From: an uncultured Candidatus Saccharibacteria bacterium
GTDB lineage: Bacteria; Patescibacteriota; Minisyncoccia; UBA6257; 2-01-FULL-56-20
Reading direction: 5' to 3'
Assembly (NCBI GenBank): GCA_964456235.1
Contig: CAYWDX010000001.1
Location: 125,935 to 189,934 of the forward strand
Length of the DNA stretch: 64,000 bases
The notes under the pieces were generated by a model. The model saw only the letters and a program-made list of their open reading frames with translations, was not told the DNA's origin and made no database searches. The position numbers and the translations under genes were made by a program. Numbering within the stretch: position 1 is the stretch's first letter; each line of letters begins with the position of its first letter. Shown one piece after another: positions 1,445-25,411 of the stretch.

Positions 1445-2650
1445 TTAGAATTGGCTCGTCAGTTGGTAGATCGGAACGATGATCGAGAGAGCGATCACGG
1501 CAACAATAATGCCCATAGCAATGAGGAGTGCCGGCTCGAGGAGCGAAACCAGCGCCCGAATATTCCCATCAATGTTCGTTTCGTAAAAATCTGAAAGCGT
1601 CACGAGCACTTCGTCGAGATGGCCGGCGCGTTCGGAAATTGCAATGAGGTTCGTGACCGATTTCGGGAACACTTCCTCGCGCCGAAATGATTCGCCAATC
1701 GTGAGCCCCTTTGCGAGTCCGTCGTGGGCAACGCGCTCGAGCGCCGCGGCAAAATCCCGATTCCCCACGGTCTGCGATGCAATCATAATGCTGTCAACGA
1801 TCGGCATACCGGCCTTCATGAGCGAACTCATCGTCGCCGCCATGCGTTGGACCGCGAGGTCGACATAAATCTTTCTGATGACCGGCAATGCGATCAGCAA
1901 TCGGTTCCATAACCGCTTGCCGGTTTCGGTTTTGTTGATGACGAACAGGAAGGCGATGATGACCGCGAAGAAGATGCCATAGAGCCAGAGGATGTTCGAT
2001 CCGATAAAGAGGCCGACACTGAACACGACGCGCGAGAAGAGCGGCGGGGTGATCGCGCTGCCGTTGAAAACGTTCGCGAGCTTGGGCAGCGCAAAGGTGA
2101 CCAGGAAGGTAAGGATCGCGAGCGCCATAACCAAAACAACGATGGGGTAGACGAGGGCCGATTTCACTTTGGCGCGGAGCTCTGCTTCTCGCTGGAGAGA
2201 AACCGAAAGTTCCTCGAATGTTTTCTGCAAATTGCCCGACGCCTCCGCCGCTTTCACGAGGTTTACGAATGTCGGCGAAAATGTTTCAGGATGTTTGGCG
2301 AACGCCGCGTAAAACGGCTGGCCACGCGTGAGGTTATTGTGCACCTCAAGCAAAAAATCGCGCATCGCCGGCTGGTCGAAATCCGCGATCAAAATATTGA
2401 TGGCCGAGAGGAGATCGGTGCCCACCCGCAACATAAGCGCGAGATATTTCGCGAGGAACACCTTATCGCTCACGCTGATGCCGCCCCAAAACTTCACCGA
2501 CTTCAGGCCCTTTTCCTTGATAGGTTTCACCGACAATGGCCTCATATCCTTCGCCGAGAGATAGCGGAGGACTTCATTCAAGGTGCTCGCTTCGAAATCT
2601 TCCTCAACGGAATTTCCGGCGCGATCGACGGCCAAATAGTGAAACAGCAT
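1445..2650 (-). CDS. pilC: type IV pilus assembly platform protein PilC (GspF family)
   Basis: 401 aa, two T2SS_F-type repeats, three TM segments; directly downstream of pilB. Confidence 0.9.
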   Translation of the reverse strand: MLFHYLAVDRAGNSVEEDFEASTLNEVLRYLSAKDMRPLSVKPIKEKGLKSVKFWGGISVSDKVFLAKYLALMLRVGTDLLSAINILIADFDQPAMRDFLLEVHNNLTRGQPFYAAFAKHPETFSPTFVNLVKAAEASGNLQKTFEELSVSLQREAELRAKVKSALVYPIVVLVMALAILTFLVTFALPKLANVFNGSAITPPLFSRVVFSVGLFIGSNILWLYGIFFAVIIAFLFVINKTETGKRLWNRLLIALPVIRKIYVDLAVQRMAATMSSLMKAGMPIVDSIMIASQTVGNRDFAAALERVAHDGLAKGLTIGESFRREEVFPKSVTNLIAISERAGHLDEVLVTLSDFYETNIDGNIRALVSLLEPALLIAMGIIVAVIALSIIVPIYQLTSQF

Positions 2651-2675
2651 GTATCAATAGTATACCACGCGCCGA

Positions 2676-4397
2676 CTACTCCCGAATCACGCGCAGCACT
2701 TCTTCGAGCGTCGTTTGTGCGAGTCCCGCCTTCTCGAGACCGTCTTCGAACATCGTCTTCATGCCTTCTTTCCATGCCGTCGCGCGGAGTTCTTCCAAAC
2801 TGAAACGTTCAGCCATAATTTTTTCTTTGACGGCTTCGGTGATGCGGAAAATTTCGAAAATGCCGAGGCGGCCGCGATAGCCGGTCATGCCGCACGCGGA
2901 ACAACCCTTCCCGCGGAATTGCGTCTTCTGCACTTTGGCGCGCTCTGGCGGAATTTGCAGATCCTTCAACTGTTGCGCGACGGTTTTCATCGTGCTCTCA
3001 TCGACGTCGTACGAATAGATGCACGACTGGCAGATCTGGCGGACCAAGCGCTGTGCGACGACGAGGTTTAAAACCGAGACGACGAGGAACGGCGGCACTT
3101 TGAGATCGAAGAAGCGCGGGATCGAGGTCGGCGCGTCGTTCGTGTGGAGCGATGAAAGCAATAAGTGGCCCGTGAGCGCTGCCTGCACGCTGATTTCGGC
3201 GGTTTCGGCGTCTCGAATTTCGCCGACCATCACGATGTTCGGGTCCTGACGCAAAATCGCGCGCAGGCCCGAAGCGAAGGTGATCCCCGCCTGCGGGTTG
3301 ATTTGCATCTGGTTCACGTAGCGCATGTTGTATTCGATCGGGTCTTCAATCGTCGTCACGTTCACCTGCGGCTTGTTCAGAATATTCATGAGCGCGTAGA
3401 GCGTCGTCGTTTTACCGGAACCGGTTGGGCCGCAGGAAAGCACCATGCCGTAGGATTTTTTCAATTCTTCCGTAATGATCGCCGAATCGGTCTCGTTCAA
3501 ACCAAGTTCCTCGAGCGAAAGCGGTTTCTGCGTCGCTTCCAGCAAACGCATTTCAATTTTTTCACCGTAGAAGGTGGGGATCACCGATACGCGGATGTCG
3601 ATCGGCTGGTTCCCTACTTCGTAGCGGAAGCGCCCGTCCTGCGGCAAAAAGTGCTCGTCAATTTTCAAGCCGGCGAGCAATTTGAGGCGCGCGACGATCG
3701 CGGTGTGGACCGCTTTCGCGACGTCCATGATCTCGTACAAAATACCGTCGATGCGGTAGCGGATGAACATGGAATCTTCCAGGACTTCAATGTGGATGTC
3801 CGACGCGCGCGAAGCGAGGGCATACGAAAGGATGTTGTCCACGATGCCGACGATCGGCAACTCGCTCGCCGCCTCCTCCGGCGTCTTCGCGCGCGTCGCG
3901 AGGGACGCTTTGATGTTATCCTCGATCAGTTTTTTGAAATCCTGGCCCAATTCGTATCCGTAAATTGAGAAGCCGCGGTTCAAATCTTCCTGCGTCGCGA
4001 GCATGGGATGGATCTTCCCGTGCAAGCGCTCAGTGAGGAACGAAACCGTTTCCAAATCCGACGGGTCCACCATCGCCGCATCAAACGAGCCATCGGCCTC
4101 GCGCGCGAACACCACCACCTGGCGCTGGCGGGCGATGTCTTCCGGAAGGATCTTCACGACCGACGAATCAATTTTTTGCTTATCGAAATCTACCTGGGGC
4201 ACGCCAAGTTCGCGCGCGATCAGGCTTTGGATATAGTCCGCCGCCATGAAGCCGCCCGAAATAAGCACGTCGATAATGCTCTGATTTTTTCGCTCGGCGT
4301 CGACCGCAAGCTCGTCAAATTTTTCCGGAGAAAGAAGCCCTTCGGATGTCGCTAATTTTTTTATTTCAGAAACAGGCAGCGGGAGCCGCATACTCAT
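2676..4397 (-). CDS. pilB: type IV pilus assembly ATPase PilB (GspE family)
   Basis: Walker A GPTGSGKTTT, N-terminal GSPII_E_N-like domain, C-terminal tetracysteine CQSC...CSAC zinc motif. Confidence 0.92.
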   Translation of the reverse strand: MSMRLPLPVSEIKKLATSEGLLSPEKFDELAVDAERKNQSIIDVLISGGFMAADYIQSLIARELGVPQVDFDKQKIDSSVVKILPEDIARQRQVVVFAREADGSFDAAMVDPSDLETVSFLTERLHGKIHPMLATQEDLNRGFSIYGYELGQDFKKLIEDNIKASLATRAKTPEEAASELPIVGIVDNILSYALASRASDIHIEVLEDSMFIRYRIDGILYEIMDVAKAVHTAIVARLKLLAGLKIDEHFLPQDGRFRYEVGNQPIDIRVSVIPTFYGEKIEMRLLEATQKPLSLEELGLNETDSAIITEELKKSYGMVLSCGPTGSGKTTTLYALMNILNKPQVNVTTIEDPIEYNMRYVNQMQINPQAGITFASGLRAILRQDPNIVMVGEIRDAETAEISVQAALTGHLLLSSLHTNDAPTSIPRFFDLKVPPFLVVSVLNLVVAQRLVRQICQSCIYSYDVDESTMKTVAQQLKDLQIPPERAKVQKTQFRGKGCSACGMTGYRGRLGIFEIFRITEAVKEKIMAERFSLEELRATAWKEGMKTMFEDGLEKAGLAQTTLEEVLRVIRE

Positions 4398-16988: not shown

Positions 16989-17291
16989 CTAGACAAGCAA
17001 GGCGGTTGCTCGTTCGCGCAGCGTTGATTCTATTTTGCCTTTGAAGGGCAACGCGGCAAAAGGCAGCCTGCTCTCAAGAGCAATCTCCGAATCTCTCACG
17101 GTGAGCGTTCCGGAAACCGAGAAACCCATCGCAGAAAAACTGAATGTGCCAGTATTACCGTTCCAGCTTTCCCGGAGGTCGCTGATCTTGTCGGCGAACT
17201 GCGTTTTGACCTGGCTGAGAAGACTCTTGATGCGAGTGAGCGCCTCGTCCTGAGGAAGACGATGGGAAACGGATATGTTCAAACTTGGCAT
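16989..17291 (-). CDS. PHA_gran_rgn-like small protein (putative polyhydroxyalkanoic-acid-system family; function unknown)
   Basis: From internal ATG (MPSLNISVSHRLPQDEALTRIKSLL...FSFSAMGFSVSGTLTV...LPFKGKIESTLRE) the pattern resembles the ~90-100 aa PHA_gran_rgn family; the ORF-track start at 17348 is probably too far upstream. Confidence 0.45.
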   Translation of the reverse strand: MPSLNISVSHRLPQDEALTRIKSLLSQVKTQFADKISDLRESWNGNTGTFSFSAMGFSVSGTLTVRDSEIALESRLPFAALPFKGKIESTLRERATALLV

Positions 17292-17439
17292 TTCCTCTGA
17301 TCTCCTTATGCTGTGACAAGATACATAAGCACCGGCATATGCTAGCATTTATATGCATTATATTCAACAGGGGTTTGACTCTACAAAGGTCAAGGGTGCA
17401 TAGCAAAAAAAGCGGCACCCATGCTGCTGGTAAGTCCGT

Positions 17440-18096
17440 TCAGATTTTTCCTTCTCGATATGCCGGCATCCCGAATAATTCGCTAATTTTTACAAATTCC
17501 AAGCCCTTCGCGCGAGCAGCCTTAATGATAGAAGGCAGGATCGCAATCGTATCCTTTGGCCGTTCAGAATCAATTTTGAGGTCATGTCCGTCATGAAGCA
17601 GGATGATTGCTCCATTCCTTAATTTTTCGGCGATCTCTTTTATCTGTGCCTCTTGCGAGCGGTTGACGCGTGAATAAGCTGATGCCAGTATTGGAATCAA
17701 ATCGAGCTGTTTTAAAATTTTGTCGGTGCCCATGTTAAACGCCAGCTCTGGCGATGGGCGAAAAAAATGGGGATACACTCCGAGCATGTCATAAATTGTA
17801 TTTAATGAATTTTTAACTTTTTCATCAGATGCTTTCTGCCAGAATGATTTCCATTTGGAAAAAATTTCGTCTTGATGAGCGTGCCCTCCGATTTCATGAC
17901 CTTCATCAATGATGCGCTTCACGACCGCCGGCAACTTGCGCATATTGTCAGGAATCAAGAAAAAAGTTGCTTTTATCGAATGTTTCTGAAGAATATCAAG
18001 GATTTCGTCTGTCCATAACGAAGGCCCGTCGTCAAGAGTAAGAGAAATTCGAGGGAGATCTTTGGGCCCGCGACGATATTTGATCAGATACCGCAT
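17440..18096 (-). CDS. polysaccharide deacetylase (NodB homology domain)
   Basis: LTLDDGPS...TFFLI and HAHQDE His-motifs of the CE4 family. Confidence 0.85.
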   Translation of the reverse strand: MRYLIKYRRGPKDLPRISLTLDDGPSLWTDEILDILQKHSIKATFFLIPDNMRKLPAVVKRIIDEGHEIGGHAHQDEIFSKWKSFWQKASDEKVKNSLNTIYDMLGVYPHFFRPSPELAFNMGTDKILKQLDLIPILASAYSRVNRSQEAQIKEIAEKLRNGAIILLHDGHDLKIDSERPKDTIAILPSIIKAARAKGLEFVKISELFGMPAYREGKI

Positions 18097-18127
18097 ATCA
18101 TGATGGTAGCATCTCCTTTGGCGATCA

Positions 18128-18158
18128 CGAAAAATAAAACCTGCCGCGAGGGCAGGTT
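18128..18158 (-). terminator. rho-independent terminator (minus strand)
   Basis: Stem AACCTGCC-GCGAG-GGCAGGTT (18138-18158) followed on the minus strand by TTTATTTTT. Confidence 0.5.
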
Positions 18159-18368
18159 CTATTCCAAGATCAAATTATGATCTAGCGGCGAGAGCGCTTG
18201 CGAGAGTGCTTCTTAGATTTCTTCGCCTTCTTCTTGGATGCTTTCCGTTTTTTCATTATATTCGTATCGATGAGATTGTTTTCGACCTTTCTTGAACGAC
18301 AAAGTAAGTTCGTTCGTTATAAATTTATTGTAGCATATTGATTTTTCGGCAACGGTGGATAACGGCGG

Positions 18369-18452
18369 TGCCCGGGGTGGGAGTCGAACCCACAAACCCT
18401 TTCGGGTTAAGGATTTTAAGTCCTCTGCGTATACCAATTCCGCCACCCGGGC
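18369..18452 (-). tRNA. tRNA-Leu (anticodon UAA)
   Basis: Sense GCCCGGGTGGCGGAATTGGTATACGCAGAGGACTTAAAATCCTTAACCCGAAAGGGTTTGTGGGTTCGACTCCCACCCCGGGCA; long variable arm; acceptor stem identical to tRNA-Leu(CAA). Confidence 0.85.
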
Positions 18453-18531
18453 AGTTTTCAATTCGCATCCTAACGTTAAACGAAAACCAGCTCGGCCGCA
18501 ACGGCCGAGCTGGTGGTTATCTGATGGTTGG

Positions 18532-18738
18532 TTAGCCGCTCCAGTTATTCTCCTCGATTGCAAGAGTGCGTGACTTCCGCTGGGCGACAAATCCACGAGA
18601 GCCGTCCACGAGAAAAACATCGAACCGGCGCGGATCGACGTCCAGCTCGGAGAGCCTAGGATTGTCGCCGCAAACTTCGAAGTGGCCGTTCACGCGCCTA
18701 ACCGGAACCTGCATGTCGAACGGAGGATTGAATTTCAT
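18532..18738 (-). CDS. small hypothetical protein (68 aa) between tRNA genes
   Basis: Perfect AGGAGG SD 6 nt upstream of the second in-frame ATG (MKFNPPFDMQVPVRR...); no recognisable domain. Confidence 0.45.
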   Translation of the reverse strand: MKFNPPFDMQVPVRRVNGHFEVCGDNPRLSELDVDPRRFDVFLVDGSRGFVAQRKSRTLAIEENNWSG

Positions 18739-18780
18739 GGCCATCCTCCTACTATTATTAAGTTTATCAAATCGATGCGG

Positions 18781-18852
18781 AGGCCTGGGCGGGAATCGAA
18801 CCCGCGTATAAGAGTTTTGCAGACCCTTGCTTTACCACTTAGCAACCAGGCC
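18781..18852 (-). tRNA. tRNA-Cys (anticodon GCA)
   Basis: Sense GGCCTGGTTGCTAAGTGGTAAAGCAAGGGTCTGCAAAACTCTTATACGCGGGTTCGATTCCCGCCCAGGCCT. Confidence 0.85.
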
Positions 18853-18898
18853 GTTTGCTCCTATCTTACGCAAGACGCGCAGCTTTATCAAACCGCTA

Positions 18899-19228
18899 TT
18901 AAACGCCGCGGTTCAGCGTTTTTTCAACTGCCGCGGCATTTTCCAAACCGTGATCGACGACGAAAGAAATTTGCGGCATCGGTTTGATGTTGATTTTTTT
19001 CCATAAGAGATGCTGCAGCCGGCCGGTCGCGCTATTCAGGATCGCGAGTGCGCGCGCGGCCGCCTCCGATGGAATGACGCTCACCCGGACGGATGCATGA
19101 TCGAGTTTTGCATCAACATCAACGCTCGTTATCGTGACGAGCGCGCCGCCAAACTCAAGCTCGCGCACTATAATGTTGCTCAATTCCTCGCGTATCAATT
19201 TCCCGACCCTCTCCGAACGAAATTTCAT
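18899..19228 (-). CDS. rbfA: ribosome-binding factor A
   Basis: 109 aa, MKFRSERVGKLIREELSNII... RbfA KH-like fold signature; immediately downstream of infB. Confidence 0.88.
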   Translation of the reverse strand: MKFRSERVGKLIREELSNIIVRELEFGGALVTITSVDVDAKLDHASVRVSVIPSEAAARALAILNSATGRLQHLLWKKINIKPMPQISFVVDHGLENAAAVEKTLNRGV

Positions 19229-20952: not shown

Positions 20953-21042
20953 GGAGGCGTGGCTGAGCGGCCGAAAGCAACTTCCTGCTAAGAAGTTAAG
21001 GGAGCAATCCCTTCGAAGGTTCGAATCCTTCCGCCTCCGCCA
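20953..21042 (+). tRNA. tRNA-Ser (anticodon GCU), CCA encoded
   Basis: GGAGGCGTGGCTGAGCGGCCGAAAGCAACTTCCTGCTAAGAAGTTAAGGGAGCAATCCCTTCGAAGGTTCGAATCCTTCCGCCTCCGCCA; long variable arm; the only tRNA here with genomic CCA. Confidence 0.88.
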
Positions 21043-21104
21043 GATTACCAACTTTGAACCTAAGTAAAATAAGGGTATCTTGGATCAAAGATGTCATCAA
21101 AATT

Positions 21105-22163
21105 ATGAAAACTAAGTCCTTAAACAAAAATTTACATTCAGCAAGAACTGCTAAAACAGATGAGTTTTACACTCAACTTATTGATATTGAAAAAGAGGTA
21201 AAACACTATAAAGATCAATTTCGCGGTAAGGTTGTGTATTGCAACTGTGATGATCCGTTTGAAAGCAATTTTTTCCGATATTTTGTGCTCAATTTCAACA
21301 AGCTTGGATTAAAACGACTTATCACAACTAGTTACAAACCATCGCCTATCGCTAACACGCAATTAGGTTTATTCGGGAATGATAAGACTCTCGCAAAGAT
21401 AAAAGGTCGCCCTAAGGTAACTGCTAACAAATTTATCATTAATGAAGCGAAAGATATTGACGGTGATGGCGAATTCAACTTGAAAGACGTTGCTAATCAG
21501 TTAAAGGCAAACAAAAATAACGAGTGGACACCCCTTGAAGGAGATGGTGATTTTCGTAGTGAGGAATCCATAAATTTACTTAAACAATCCGATATTATTG
21601 TAACTAATCCACCATTTTCTTTATTCCGTGAATATCTAGCACAATTAATTGAATACAATAAAAAGTTTTTGATTCTCGGCGATCAAAATGCGGTTACTTA
21701 CAAAGAACCTTTTGGATACATTCAAAATAACAAGTTGTGGCTTGGTTATGATAACGGCGGTACAAAATGGTTTCAAGTTCCAATGGATTACGACATACCA
21801 ACCGAATCAAGAAAGAAAATTGAAAAAGGTATCAAATATTTTAGCATGGGAAGAATTTTGTGGTTTACAAATCTTGATACTACAAAACGACACGATAACT
21901 TAGTACTGTATAAAAAATATGCACCAAAGGAATTTCCTAAATATGACAACTTTGATGTTATAAATGTTGATAAAGTTTCTGACATTCCGATGAACTACGA
22001 CGGTGTTATGGGTGTTCCGATCACATTTGTTGATAAATATAATCCTAAACAATTTGAAATTTTAGGCATAGCAAATTCCGCAAGATGGATTGGTTATAAG
22101 TGCCTCACCCTCATTAAGGGTAGAAAAATATATAATCGCATTTTAATTAAAAGAAAAAAATAA
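21105..22163 (+). CDS. N6-adenine DNA methyltransferase, EcoRI-methylase-like family (NPPF motif)
   Basis: Motifs DEFYTQ, VVYCNCDDPFESNFF, GDGDFRS, IIVTNPPFSLFREYL, YDGVMGVPITFVDKYNPKQF; the ORF-track start 21054 is a TTG 12 nt after the tRNA, so the start was moved to the first ATG (MKTKSLN...). Confidence 0.75.
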   Translation: MKTKSLNKNLHSARTAKTDEFYTQLIDIEKEVKHYKDQFRGKVVYCNCDDPFESNFFRYFVLNFNKLGLKRLITTSYKPSPIANTQLGLFGNDKTLAKIKGRPKVTANKFIINEAKDIDGDGEFNLKDVANQLKANKNNEWTPLEGDGDFRSEESINLLKQSDIIVTNPPFSLFREYLAQLIEYNKKFLILGDQNAVTYKEPFGYIQNNKLWLGYDNGGTKWFQVPMDYDIPTESRKKIEKGIKYFSMGRILWFTNLDTTKRHDNLVLYKKYAPKEFPKYDNFDVINVDKVSDIPMNYDGVMGVPITFVDKYNPKQFEILGIANSARWIGYKCLTLIKGRKIYNRILIKRKK

Positions 22164-22164
22164 T

Positions 22165-23256
22165 ATGAAAATTAATCTACATAAAATTCAAATCCGTAAA
22201 GTTTTTGGTGGGTATAAGGATAGTGCCGAAGAGGGAGTCGTTGCTTATGGCGGTAAGCTGGATATTCGACCAAAATACCAGCGAGAATTCGTTTACAAAC
22301 CTGAACAACGCAATGCTGTTATAAATACTGTTCAAAATGAATTTCCACTTAACGTCATGTATTGGATAGAAAATAGTGCTGGTAAATATGAGTTGCTCGA
22401 TGGTCAACAGCGCACTTTAAGTATTTGTCAGTATGTTAATGGTGACTATTCAATTAATGACCGCTATTTCCATAATCTGACCAATGAAGAAAAAGATCAG
22501 ATTCTTGACTACGAACTCATGATCTATTTTTGTGATGGAACAGATAAGGAGCGTATTAAATGGTTCGAGGTGATTAATACGGCTGGTGAAAAACTTACAC
22601 CGCAAGAGTTGCTTAATGCCGTGTATACCGGATCATGGCTCTCAGATGCAAAATTAAAATTTAGTAAATCAGGCTGTGCCGCATATCTTTTGGCGAATGA
22701 CGATGGACAGTTAGTAAGTGGTTCTCCAATTCGGCAGGAATATCTTGAAACTGCATTATCTTGGATCAATAATGGCGATGTTGCTGGCTATATGGCAAAG
22801 CATCAGCACGACAAAAATGCTGAAAAGTTATGGGAATATTTCCAAAATGTAATTGCGTGGGTACGAAAAAATTTCACAAATTATCGTAAAGAAATGGCAA
22901 GTGTGAATTGGGGCGAGCTATACAACGAATTCAAAGATAAAAAGCTAACTGCTACCAAAATTGAAGCAGAGATTAGCAAATTAATGCAGGATGAGGACGT
23001 TACCAAAAAGTCGGGTATCTATCCGTATGTTTTGATGAGGCAAGAAAGGTATCTTTCGATTCGTGCCTTCACAGACAAAATGAAACGTGAAGCATTTGAG
23101 AGGCAAAATGGTAAGTGTTCATTTTGTAAGAAAAAATTTGATATTTCCGAAATGGAAGCCGATCATATTTCACCTTGGCACGAAGGTGGAAAAACCATAG
23201 CTCAAAATTGCCAAATGTTGTGCAAGCAGGACAATCGCACTAAATCTGGAAAATAA
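22165..23256 (+). CDS. DUF262 (ParB/Srx-like) + HNH endonuclease two-domain protein (GmrSD-like architecture)
   Basis: N-terminal ELLDGQQRTLSI (DGQQR hallmark of DUF262); C-terminal CSFCKK...ADHISPWHEGGKTIAQNCQMLCKQDNRTK (CxxC...DHIxP...GG...N...LCxxxN HNH/His-Me finger); start is 1 nt after the MTase stop. Confidence 0.75.
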   Translation: MKINLHKIQIRKVFGGYKDSAEEGVVAYGGKLDIRPKYQREFVYKPEQRNAVINTVQNEFPLNVMYWIENSAGKYELLDGQQRTLSICQYVNGDYSINDRYFHNLTNEEKDQILDYELMIYFCDGTDKERIKWFEVINTAGEKLTPQELLNAVYTGSWLSDAKLKFSKSGCAAYLLANDDGQLVSGSPIRQEYLETALSWINNGDVAGYMAKHQHDKNAEKLWEYFQNVIAWVRKNFTNYRKEMASVNWGELYNEFKDKKLTATKIEAEISKLMQDEDVTKKSGIYPYVLMRQERYLSIRAFTDKMKREAFERQNGKCSFCKKKFDISEMEADHISPWHEGGKTIAQNCQMLCKQDNRTKSGK

Positions 23257-23263
23257 AAACTTT

Positions 23264-24370
23264 TTAGGCTGGTTGAACAAATTTAACTCGAGGTCTTAAG
23301 TGGGAAAATTTTCTCCAAGCATCTTTTACACCCATTTCATGTAGTTCGTGTGCAACCCTTCCAGCAACTATAGCCGGAGATACATTAATCTCCTTTGCGA
23401 ACTTGATAATACGATCATCAGCAGAAACTCTGTCACCAGCTTTAAACTCATTAAACTTTGCATCAGAAATCAAAGTTTTACGTGCAAATTCATCGGCTTC
23501 TTTTTCTTTATCCGCTAATTCACTGTTTTCTCTTTTCTCAAACTCTATAAACTGGTCCTTTTTACCATGTTTAAGTAAATGGCCAATTTCATGAAAGAAA
23601 GTGAACCAAAAACGATCTATGTGAGCACCCCTCAAACTTACTTGTATAAGTGCTTTATCAGCTGAAAGCCATCTTGTAGCACCATCAACAAAAGTATTTG
23701 AAAAATAAGGCACAAAAGCAACAGCAACGCCAGATTCTGAACAAATCTCTTGTATGCCTTTTTCAATACCAGTAACATCTTTTTTGGTTAATGCCCGCAA
23801 ACTTTCAATTGAGTTTGTCAGCTTATCTTTATCAAAAGATTTAGTCTGTATTTTGTTTCCCTCGATCTCACCACATCTAAGCCATGCGGCAAGACATTCA
23901 TGCGACAAATTACTCTGTTTAGATTGTCTAAATGCAACCTGATGAGTTTTTTGGACAAATCCTAAAGAGCTTACACCAAAGAAGTTTAAGAGATTAAACA
24001 CCTTTTCTTTTGAATCTTTTGATTTTGGTACATAATTCCATTTTGCCAACTCTTTATAGCAATCAAATTTATCTAAGGAAGGCAACTCCTTTTCTAGCTT
24101 TTTATCTCTTTCAATTCTTGCCAATGTTTCCTGATAGCTTCTTTCAAGGCTATTCCAAAACACAGGAGACATGCCGAATACAGCAGAAAGCTTTAACGCT
24201 GTTTCCGGGGTAATAGGGTTCTTTCCCTGAATAATCTCATTGATTGTCTTTGGAGTAAGATCTGTTCTTGCGGCAAGATCAGTCTGGGTCATGTTTACGT
24301 TATCCAATAACTCCTTAAGAGTATTACCTGGATGAATTGCGATATTTGGATTGAAATCGTTTGTAGCCAT
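23264..24370 (-). CDS. higA: HigA-like HTH (XRE) antitoxin fused to ImmA/IrrE (COG2856) zinc-metallopeptidase domain
   Basis: N-terminus IHPGNTLKELLDNVNMTQTDLAARTDLTPKTINEIIQGKNPITPETALKLSAVFGMSPVFW (HigA HTH); C-terminal HEIGHLLKH (HExxH); start taken at ATG (MATNDF...) 4 nt after the higB stop rather than the upstream TTG. Confidence 0.75.
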   Translation of the reverse strand: MATNDFNPNIAIHPGNTLKELLDNVNMTQTDLAARTDLTPKTINEIIQGKNPITPETALKLSAVFGMSPVFWNSLERSYQETLARIERDKKLEKELPSLDKFDCYKELAKWNYVPKSKDSKEKVFNLLNFFGVSSLGFVQKTHQVAFRQSKQSNLSHECLAAWLRCGEIEGNKIQTKSFDKDKLTNSIESLRALTKKDVTGIEKGIQEICSESGVAVAFVPYFSNTFVDGATRWLSADKALIQVSLRGAHIDRFWFTFFHEIGHLLKHGKKDQFIEFEKRENSELADKEKEADEFARKTLISDAKFNEFKAGDRVSADDRIIKFAKEINVSPAIVAGRVAHELHEMGVKDAWRKFSHLRPRVKFVQPA

Positions 24371-24374
24371 ATGT

Positions 24375-24689
24375 TTAGTGGTAATCAATTATTTCAATAA
24401 TCATGACCTTGCTTATCGACTTTAGATCTTGAGGATCTCCATTTAAATAGGTGATGATTATTCGATACGGATGTTTGATATCTAAAGCATAACATTTTTT
24501 CAGCTTACCCTTTAACGGGTGCAGTCTGATTTGAGGAAGCTTCGATATATCAGACAGACTCTCCGCAGACAATAACTCATTAATCCTCTGGACTATCAAT
24601 TCTGCCTGAAGATGGCCGTATCTCCTCTTTAATAAGGCACCATCTTCGCAGGTTTTCTTGAGTTTTTTGTCTTTAAAGGAGAGTTCCAT
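24375..24689 (-). CDS. higB: HigB-family (RelE/ParE superfamily) mRNA interferase toxin
   Basis: MELSFKDKKLKK...RLHPLKGKLKK...YLNGD...IIDYH matches the HigB pattern (xSFKxKxLKK / LHPLKG / NGD / DYH C-terminus). Confidence 0.8.
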   Translation of the reverse strand: MELSFKDKKLKKTCEDGALLKRRYGHLQAELIVQRINELLSAESLSDISKLPQIRLHPLKGKLKKCYALDIKHPYRIIITYLNGDPQDLKSISKVMIIEIIDYH

Positions 24690-24792
24690 TCTAATGCTAT
24701 AGGACGGTTATTAGAGTAAATCATTACTACCCGAGTGTAGCAAAACTCACTAAATATGTCAAATGTGGATAACCCAATAGGTTAATGATATT

Positions 24793-24820
24793 TTGACATT
24801 GTGCAGGAAGAGCATATAAT
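24793..24820 (+). promoter_or_regulatory. near-consensus sigma70-type promoter (TTGACA-16-TATAAT)
   Basis: ttgaca at 24793-24798, 16-nt spacer, tataat at 24815-24820; lies in the higB / DUF2188-ORF divergent intergenic region. Confidence 0.55.
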
Positions 24821-24861
24821 TGAAAACGTTTGAGGCTCGACAAACATTTTATCAAAAATAA

Positions 24862-25110
24862 TTTTGCAAACGCCAAATAGCCACAAAACAATACAAGCAA
24901 GTTTGGGTCAGTCCAATCGGTGATGATTGGAAAGTGAAAAGCGCCGGGGCTGATCGAGCTGCCGCAATCGTAGACACGAAAGCGGAAGCGGTGGAGCTAG
25001 CACGTGAGATCGCGATCAATAAGAAAGCAGAACTTATTGTTCAAAACGCAGATGGTGAGATTGGGTGGAGGAATTCGTATGGTCACGATTCTTTCCCTCC
25101 TCGGGGATAG
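24862..25110 (+). CDS. DUF2188-like small protein ORF lacking a canonical start codon (possible pseudogene or non-AUG start)
   Basis: Frame translates ...QYKQVWVSPIGDDWKVKSAGADRAAAIVDTKAEAVELAREIAINKKAELIVQNADGEIGWRNSYGHDSFPPRG*, matching the DUF2188 pattern (VWVSP..G.W.VK..G..RA......A.A...AR.IA......EL..QG.DG.I...NSYG.DP.PP); no in-frame ATG/GTG/TTG covers the domain, only an internal GTG that would give 58 aa. Confidence 0.4.
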   Translation, partial: FCKRQIATKQYKQVWVSPIGDDWKVKSAGADRAAAIVDTKAEAVELAREIAINKKAELIVQNADGEIGWRNSYGHDSFPPRG

Positions 25111-25411
25111 TACAAAGAAAACTGACCAACGGCCAGTTTTCTCCGATTCTTATTCAAAGTCGTCCCGCAGTGGGCGACTTTGTTATTCTAACATGAACGT
25201 AAATTTATATTATCCACTTTTTAGTTGATCGAATAATCAACAACATTGTTTCCTTTATCCGATTTTGGCTTGGGAACTTCAAACCATTCAGGATGGACTT
25301 TGTAGATAGACCTTAATTTCTGTATACTTTTATCAAGATCCTCGAATTTGAGCCGTGTTTCTGGTTCAAAGTTGTGGCAATCGTCCCCGCAGCTGTTACA
25401 CTTACAACCAA

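Follow-up and report, generated by a model that had tools for sequence, protein, structure and literature searches.

A probable two-gene restriction-modification cassette pairing an EcoRI-family methylase with a DUF262-HNH nuclease in a Candidatus Saccharibacteria genome

Introduction

The GmrSD, BrxU and SspE enzymes are nucleases of 560-580 amino acids (aa) that combine an N-terminal DUF262 domain with a C-terminal DUF1524 domain, and that act alone or together with Ssp or BREX modules. The QR, DGQQR and FxxxN motifs of their DUF262 domain were defined by Machnicka et al., and DGQQR has been assigned to the nucleotide pocket of GmrS (PMC4619093). Classical type IIP restriction enzymes, which depend on Mg2+ only, have no such GmrS/ParB-like domain, and in the EcoRI system the nuclease gene precedes the methylase gene. 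A pair of an EcoRI-family methylase and a DUF262-HNH nuclease has been discussed in the searchable literature in one paper only, where the pair on a plasmid of Sulfitobacter indolifex was proposed as a possible novel restriction-modification (R-M) system (PMC9025767). Here we describe such a pair from an uncultured Candidatus Saccharibacteria bacterium, located in a window of 64,000 nucleotides (nt), i.e. the whole stretch of DNA that was analysed (assembly GCA_964456235.1, contig CAYWDX010000001.1, positions 125,935 to 189,934). The pair is likely to be an intact, horizontally acquired two-gene R-M cassette in which the methylase is transcribed first. The locus is one copy of a very common, catalogued and apparently unstudied R-M family, not a new kind of system.

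The methylase and nuclease genes

A first-pass annotation of the window had described two open reading frames (ORFs) of 352 and 363 aa with a spacing of 1 nt. Both were found where it had placed them (Table 1), and all methylase and nuclease motifs that it quoted are present in the translations. Its domain assignments also hold against the thresholds of the hidden Markov models (HMMs), all three Pfam families scoring above their curated cut-offs. The methylase matches EcoRI_methylase (PF13651) with E = 1.2e-129 and 433 bits (cut-off 26.4), as well as the PADLOC profile MTase_II (PDLC03297; E = 5e-117). Full-length identity to M.EcoRI is ~46-49%, with 45.9% for the M.EcoRI gene adjoining R.EcoRI on the E. 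coli plasmid NZ_CP103650.1, and the protein carries the motifs DEFYTQ (aa 19-24), VVYCNCDDP (aa 43-51), GDGDFRS (aa 146-152), TNPPF (aa 167-171) and GVMGVPITF (aa 300-308). A longer ORF starting with TTG at 21054 is also present, but alignments with M.EcoRI and further homologues begin at the ATG (21105). A sequence search of the PDB with the methylase returned no match.

The 1-nt junction between the genes is a predicted translational coupling of methylase and nuclease. The same gap was seen in the Macrococcoides pair, while the genes overlap by 1-11 nt in Aeromonas, Sulfitobacter, Variovorax, Ruania, Acinetobacter, L. pentosus and a Flavobacterium phage, and lie 9 nt apart on a Moraxella plasmid.

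The nuclease matches Pfam GmrSD_N (PF03235; E = 3.1e-20, 73.6 bits, cut-off 33.2) and HNH (PF01844; E = 2.4e-11, 44.1 bits, cut-off 21.4). The first-pass annotation had likened its architecture to that of GmrSD, BrxU and SspE. This stood for the DUF262 domain and for the presence of a canonical HNH domain, but the latter is not the DUF1524 His-Me domain of those enzymes: PF07510 gave no match in the nuclease at E <= 0.01, and the domain is a zinc-bound HNH of the CxxC...CxxxC type in a much shorter protein. Its motifs are CSFC (aa 318-321), DHISP (aa 333-337), NCQMLC (aa 348-353) and QDNR (aa 355-358), which hold the HNH residues C318xxC321, D333-H334 (the predicted general base), N348, C349xxxC353 and N357.

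Putative nucleotide-binding motifs in the N-terminal domain are QR (22279-22284), DGQQR (22399-22413, aa 79-83) and FxxxN (22564-22578). In an alignment of 113 homologues Q39-R40, D79-G80-x-x-R83, N138, Q147-E148, C318, G342 and N348 are invariant, the first three groups being the QR, DGQQR and FxxxN signatures of the DUF262 family, and H334 is conserved in at least 90%. Since all three signatures are kept, the nuclease probably binds a nucleotide.

An AlphaFold2 (AF2) model built from the 113-sequence alignment has a predicted local distance difference test score (pLDDT) of 94.3 and a predicted template modelling score (pTM) of 0.81, with helices spanning residues 172-313. It replaced an earlier run on a shallow two-clade alignment (pLDDT 67), for which Foldseek was uninformative. 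Among solved structures, BrxU and SspE come closest in fold to the N-terminal domain and Cas9/McrA to the HNH domain, and Foldseek alignments to ParB/Noc reach past the N-terminal domain. A sequence search of the PDB with the nuclease gave matches to the HNH domain only. The central helical region may be considered a candidate DNA-binding or specificity region.

Table 1 Features of the methylase-nuclease locus, with positions in the window
Feature	Position	Strand	Remarks
tRNA-Ser (GCT)	20953..21042	+	ARAGORN; left edge of low-GC island
Low-GC island	21043..25300 (right edge approximate)	.	36.4% GC vs 54.0% in rest of window
EcoRI-family N6-adenine DNA methyltransferase, 352 aa	21105-22163	+	ATG at 21105
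VVYCNCDDP	21231-21257	+	M.EcoRI-type motif as recognised in the first-pass annotation
NPPF, predicted catalytic, aa 168-171	21606-21617	+	N6-adenine methylase motif
Junction TAA-T-ATG	22161..22167	+	Stop TAA 22161-22163, T22164, nuclease ATG 22165
DUF262-HNH nuclease, 363 aa	22165-23256	+	ORF
N-terminal DUF262/GmrS (ParB/Srx-like) domain, aa 1 to ~160	22165..22644	+	
Central all-helical region, aa ~161-317, ~150 residues	22645..23115	+	Without family assignment
C-terminal zinc-bound HNH domain, aa 318-363	23116..23256	+	
HigA-type helix-turn-helix (HTH) fused to M78/ImmA-IrrE peptidase, 374-aa antitoxin	23264-24388	-	Overlaps HigB gene
HigB-like toxin, 104 aa	24375-24689	-	PF05015; convergent to nuclease
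Small ORF, 58 aa from GTG, possibly longer	24934-25110	+	From sequence

Relation to catalogued systems

The nuclease matches the PADLOC profile REase_II (PDLC03418, 'Type II restriction enzyme') along the entire length of both protein and profile (aa 1-363 of 363, profile positions 1-372 of 372, E = 7.4e-128), and five homologues from other organisms and clades match it with 284-456 bits. As no homologue reaches the bits per residue that R.EcoRI has against its own profile, the seeds of PDLC03418 are presumably other members of the family. This defence-gene HMM library already lists the family under type II restriction, and the Sulfitobacter pair had been flagged earlier as a possible R-M system (PMC9025767); the novelty attributed to the pair in the first-pass annotation was therefore overrated. 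NCBI PGAP names the homologues 'DUF262 domain-containing protein' or 'HNH endonuclease family protein'.

Likeness to type II systems is found in the separate, adjacent genes on the same strand, with the methylase first and a spacer of 1 nt, and in the full-length match of both proteins to catalogued profiles. By the logic of PADLOC the locus would be called RM_type_II, and among the options raised at first pass a two-gene R-M system with a DUF262-HNH restriction component is the best supported. However, the nuclease is neither a PD-(D/E)XK nor a small HNH enzyme, and unlike the classical type IIP enzymes it has a GmrS/ParB-like, putatively nucleotide-binding domain, whose intact DGQQR pocket points to the use of a nucleotide as cofactor, which would be atypical of type II. 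It is also unrelated to R.EcoRI, which matches PDLC03551 whereas the window nuclease does not, and the gene order is the reverse of that of EcoRI. Matches to Menshen NsnA and PD-T4-2_A are limited to the DUF262 segment, aa 30-158 (E = 1.9e-23 and 1.2e-10, respectively).

The Sulfitobacter pair (DSM14862_04460 and its neighbour on pDSM14862_g, NZ_CP084958.1) shares 54.7% identity with the window pair in the nuclease and 48.7% in the methylase, its genes overlapping by 4 nt. It belongs to a different subclade and resides on an alphaproteobacterial plasmid. The experimental data on it consist of PacBio motifs alone (see below), and its specificity need not hold for the window system.

Linkage of the pair and its distribution

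A scan of 185,579 species-representative genomes, one per species, yielded 384 relatives of the nuclease; at E <= 1e-30 there were 463 clusters at 50% identity. Of the best 80 loci among the 384 relatives, 79 have an EcoRI-family methylase gene upstream in the same orientation, and in the one exception the sequence upstream is just 463 nt long. No other neighbour is conserved in these 80 loci; the adenine methylase stands alone in this respect. The hosts are mostly Patescibacteria, in which the family is especially abundant, and further include Gammaproteobacteria, Bdellovibrionales, Omnitrophota, Flavobacteriaceae, Atribacterota, Fidelibacterota and one archaeon, a Methanobacterium metagenome-assembled genome.

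The pair also occurs on plasmids. About 44 plasmid records hold a full-length homologue of the nuclease (35-59% identity), and the order methylase then nuclease was found in all plasmid regions that were opened (Macrococcoides, L. pentosus, Moraxella, Sulfitobacter, Aeromonas, Variovorax and Ruania). The small plasmids of the R.EcoRI type are from Enterobacteriaceae only, one of them having been opened and the others being assumed to be of the same type. The expectation at first pass that EcoRI-family methylases usually go with EcoRI-fold nucleases was not confirmed, DUF262-HNH being the commoner partner on plasmids.

In a second clade of nucleases, of about 387 aa and 35-39% identical, every nuclease gene also follows an EcoRI-family methylase gene. 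Carriers of the clade 2 pair are Acinetobacter chromosomes, a Haemophilus Tn7-like element and a Flavobacterium phage. In Haemophilus haemolyticus and metagenomes (L089-L091) the clade 2 pair is found downstream of TniB/TniQ and seems to be carried by a Tn7-like transposon. Furthermore, single-chain fusions of EcoRI_methylase, GmrSD_N and HNH exist (P0264, 688 aa; P0394, 717 aa), which are 42% identical to each other, and a shorter protein of 535 aa (P0395) holds the same three domains. The fusion is either old or has arisen more than once.

DNA homology of the window with other genomes (70-82%) is restricted to 21100-23258, from the methylase start through the nuclease stop, which indicates that the mobile unit consists of the methylase and nuclease genes alone. 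This finding, together with the conserved neighbourhood on chromosomes, on plasmids, in phage and in clade 2, and with the fusions, supports the idea of a coupled, R-M-like pair put forward in the first-pass annotation. That annotation had also considered an orphan methylase beside an independent GmrSD-like type IV enzyme directed at a different modification. The DUF262 N-terminal domain and the similarity in fold to BrxU and SspE would fit such an enzyme, and some database sources call the homologues 'McrA'. However, a linkage that persists in 79 of 80 loci, across clades of 35-39% identity, on plasmids, in phages and in hosts from several phyla, an archaeon among them, is not expected of independent genes, the more so since fusion proteins exist and the homology blocks stop exactly at the boundaries of the two genes. 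Linkage and fusions effectively exclude the orphan reading, to which we assign a negligible probability.

Two departures from the simple arrangement were observed. In 13 of the 80 loci (L005, L006, L015, L018, L033, L040, L042, L044, L055, L066, L067, L075 and L077), and also in Haemophilus haemolyticus (L090:4391-4996), 0.6-1.9 kilobases (kb) of unrelated genes stand between methylase and nuclease. They encode RhuM, Fic, Bro-N, T5orf172/GIY-YIG-like and other proteins, the latter without assignment, and the junction looks like an insertion hot spot or recombination point for small accessory or defence-type genes. Secondly, the megaplasmid of Variovorax sp. SRS16 has two EcoRI-family methylases (L095:288-1316 and 1995-3011; 59% mutual identity) ahead of one nuclease, an order that recalls the type IIS systems whose recognition sites are asymmetric. 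A second methylase is absent from all 80 clade 1 loci.

Reshuffling of nuclease partners

Phylogenetic analysis placed genuine M.EcoRI (L081:864-1844, beside R.EcoRI) among the methylases that partner DUF262-HNH nucleases (91/100 bootstraps), as sister to the methylase of a Macrococcoides canis plasmid (87/100 bootstraps). This nesting means that a single methylase lineage has had nuclease partners of two unrelated folds and that partners have been reshuffled; on this tree a PD-(D/E)XK nuclease appears to have been swapped for a DUF262-HNH nuclease, or the reverse. At the deep level the partners co-diverge, clade 2 nucleases being paired with clade 2 methylases.

Proposed mode of action

In the proposed mechanism the methyltransferase would set N6-methyladenine (m6A) on a defined sequence in the host genome, and the coupled 363-aa nuclease would attack DNA lacking this mark, cutting through its zinc-stabilised HNH (beta-beta-alpha-metal) site. 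Nucleotide binding, perhaps with hydrolysis, is the most likely role of the GmrS/ParB-like domain and would gate or stimulate cleavage, as in GmrSD, BrxU and SspE. Gene linkage points to methylation blocking cleavage rather than triggering it. The nuclease would require a nucleotide and would itself read the DNA sequence.

If this standard reading is true, the window holds one more copy of a very common R-M family and the locus itself is ordinary. The interest lies in the family, in which the nuclease chassis of GmrSD, BrxU and SspE is apparently used with opposite polarity beside the best-known methylase family in molecular biology. A characterised member would show how a ParB-like nucleotide pocket serves classical restriction, would explain the two unrelated nuclease partners of M.EcoRI-type methylases and would improve the annotation of the proteins that PGAP calls 'DUF262 domain-containing protein'. 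The mechanistic questions (polarity, cofactor and which of the proteins reads the DNA) are cheap to test.

A different polarity, by analogy to Ssp, would have host m6A act as a positive self signal that is sensed by DUF262 and arms the nuclease against unmarked invaders. The shared N-terminal domain brings this model to mind, but we found no evidence that favours it over simple protection. PADLOC groups the family with type II nucleases, the cassette moves onto plasmids and phages as a minimal two-gene unit like classical R-M modules, and the C-terminal domain is a canonical HNH whereas SspE has DUF1524. Phosphorothioate modification genes, as in the Ssp system, are not among the island genes or the conserved neighbours in the 80 loci, and in contrast to GmrSD, BrxU and SspE the family is near-obligately partnered with its own adenine methylase. 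We regard an Ssp-like polarity as quite improbable.

Several observations nevertheless weigh against the reading as a classical R-M cassette. All solved relatives of the N-terminal domain act on modified DNA or take a modification as a positive signal, and for that reason the case for a polarity in which m6A blocks cleavage has to come from gene linkage. We found no biochemical or genetic data on any family member in the literature searched, which did not cover REBASE. No recognition site emerged from Markov-corrected counts of 4-, 5- and 6-mers, which were used to look for word avoidance both in the host portion of the window and in 72 pooled sequences. Finally, the nuclease is better conserved than the methylase and diverges nearly independently of it, which is odd if each nuclease must match the specificity of its methylase.

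This asymmetry was seen in a comparison of 72 pairs, i.e. 71 complete clade 1 pairs and the window pair. Mean pairwise identity is 79% for the nuclease (minimum 71%) and 65% for the methylase (minimum 50%), and the nuclease is the better conserved partner in 96.5% of the pairwise comparisons, opposite to what is usual for type II systems. Clade 2 (L083, L086, L090 and L092) shows the same trend.

The conservation data are what would be expected of a nuclease guided by its methylase, following the logic of type III or type IIG systems. The nuclease would then have little or no specificity of its own and would dock on the partner methylase or be licensed by it, the methylase providing recognition of the target, with methylation protecting self and the ParB-like domain serving as a nucleotide switch. 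Such a model would explain the conservation asymmetry, the interchangeable methylase subfamilies with probably different specificities, the fusions and a possible one-strand motif. In its favour are nucleases that remain 71-90% identical while their partner methylases fall to about 50%, and an identity of the nuclease that is equal within and between methylase subgroups (0.794 vs 0.791; Mantel r = 0.19). In one locus (L036) the methylase is closer to those of Sulfitobacter (63%) and EcoRI (59%) than to that of the window (55%), yet the nuclease is 75% identical to the window nuclease. The existing fusions, the tight coupling at nearly all loci examined and the candidate one-strand, non-palindromic motif GGCATC for the single-methylase Sulfitobacter homologue (see below) also agree with it. 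On the other hand, nuclease and methylase clades co-diverge at the deep level, and the cargo of 0.6-1.9 kb between the genes in 13 of 80 loci means that strict co-translation is not required. Moreover, the ~150-aa helical region of the modelled nuclease could itself read DNA, the clade 1 methylases may all share one specificity, and the attribution of GGCATC to the Sulfitobacter methylase is unproven. Guidance by the methylase thus seems unlikely, though it should be kept in view. A similarly low probability attaches to its more specific form, in which the DUF262-HNH protein, modelled on ParB, would be a nucleotide-switched module that is itself blind to DNA sequence and is targeted or licensed by any EcoRI-family methylase coupled to it, a minimal, helicase-free analogue of type III systems.

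Recognition site

Under the preferred reading of a classical R-M cassette, the pair would have a recognition site of its own. The pooled counts (72 sequences, 872 kb) show a mild overall depletion of palindromes, with observed/expected ratios of 0.65 for ATGCAT, 0.75 for GATATC and 0.82 for GAATTC; in the host part of the window GAATTC has a ratio of 0.49, similar to other palindromes. Because its GC content is unameliorated, the island is probably too recent for site avoidance to have evolved.

GAATTC, which homology to M.EcoRI would predict, was considered and set aside as unsafe. The Sulfitobacter indolifex methylase is 52% identical to M.EcoRI, and PacBio data show GAATTC to be unmethylated in this strain (PMC9025767); in spite of the nesting of M.EcoRI among the partner methylases, GAATTC can therefore not be assumed for the window. 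One methylome pipeline uses a threshold of 80% identity for motif transfer. A strain-unique m6A motif of S. indolifex, GGCATC, has no match in REBASE (PMC9025767). This non-palindromic motif is a candidate product of the Sulfitobacter homologue, a system with a single methylase. A literature search on GGCATC returned only primer noise.

Genomic setting

The cassette starts 63 nt 3' of tRNA-Ser(GCT), at the edge of which GC drops from about 57% to about 34%. The island contains the R-M pair, a HigB/HigA-M78 pair and one small ORF. Neither an integrase in the island nor an att-like, tRNA-derived direct repeat around it was found, and DNA homology elsewhere is limited to the R-M genes. A promoter scan from the tRNA to the methylase gave no convincing sigma-70 site, counts being equal to the shuffle level.

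The HigB/HigA-M78 pair lies tail-to-tail with the nuclease gene, with 7 nt between them. Its antitoxin matches the PADLOC profiles PD-Lambda-2_B (E = 2.6e-38) and RmrA. No match for either HigB or HigA-M78 was found near the pair in the 80 related loci. The small ORF presumably resembles DUF2188-type proteins, and a perfect sigma-70 consensus (TTGACA-16-TATAAT) is located upstream of it at 24793-24820.

A second stretch of lowered GC (46-49%) at 17000-19000 of the window could be another small insertion. It contains an ORF at 17440-18096 that reads as polysaccharide-deacetylase-like and is flanked by tRNA-Leu(CAA), tRNA-Leu(TAA) and tRNA-Cys.

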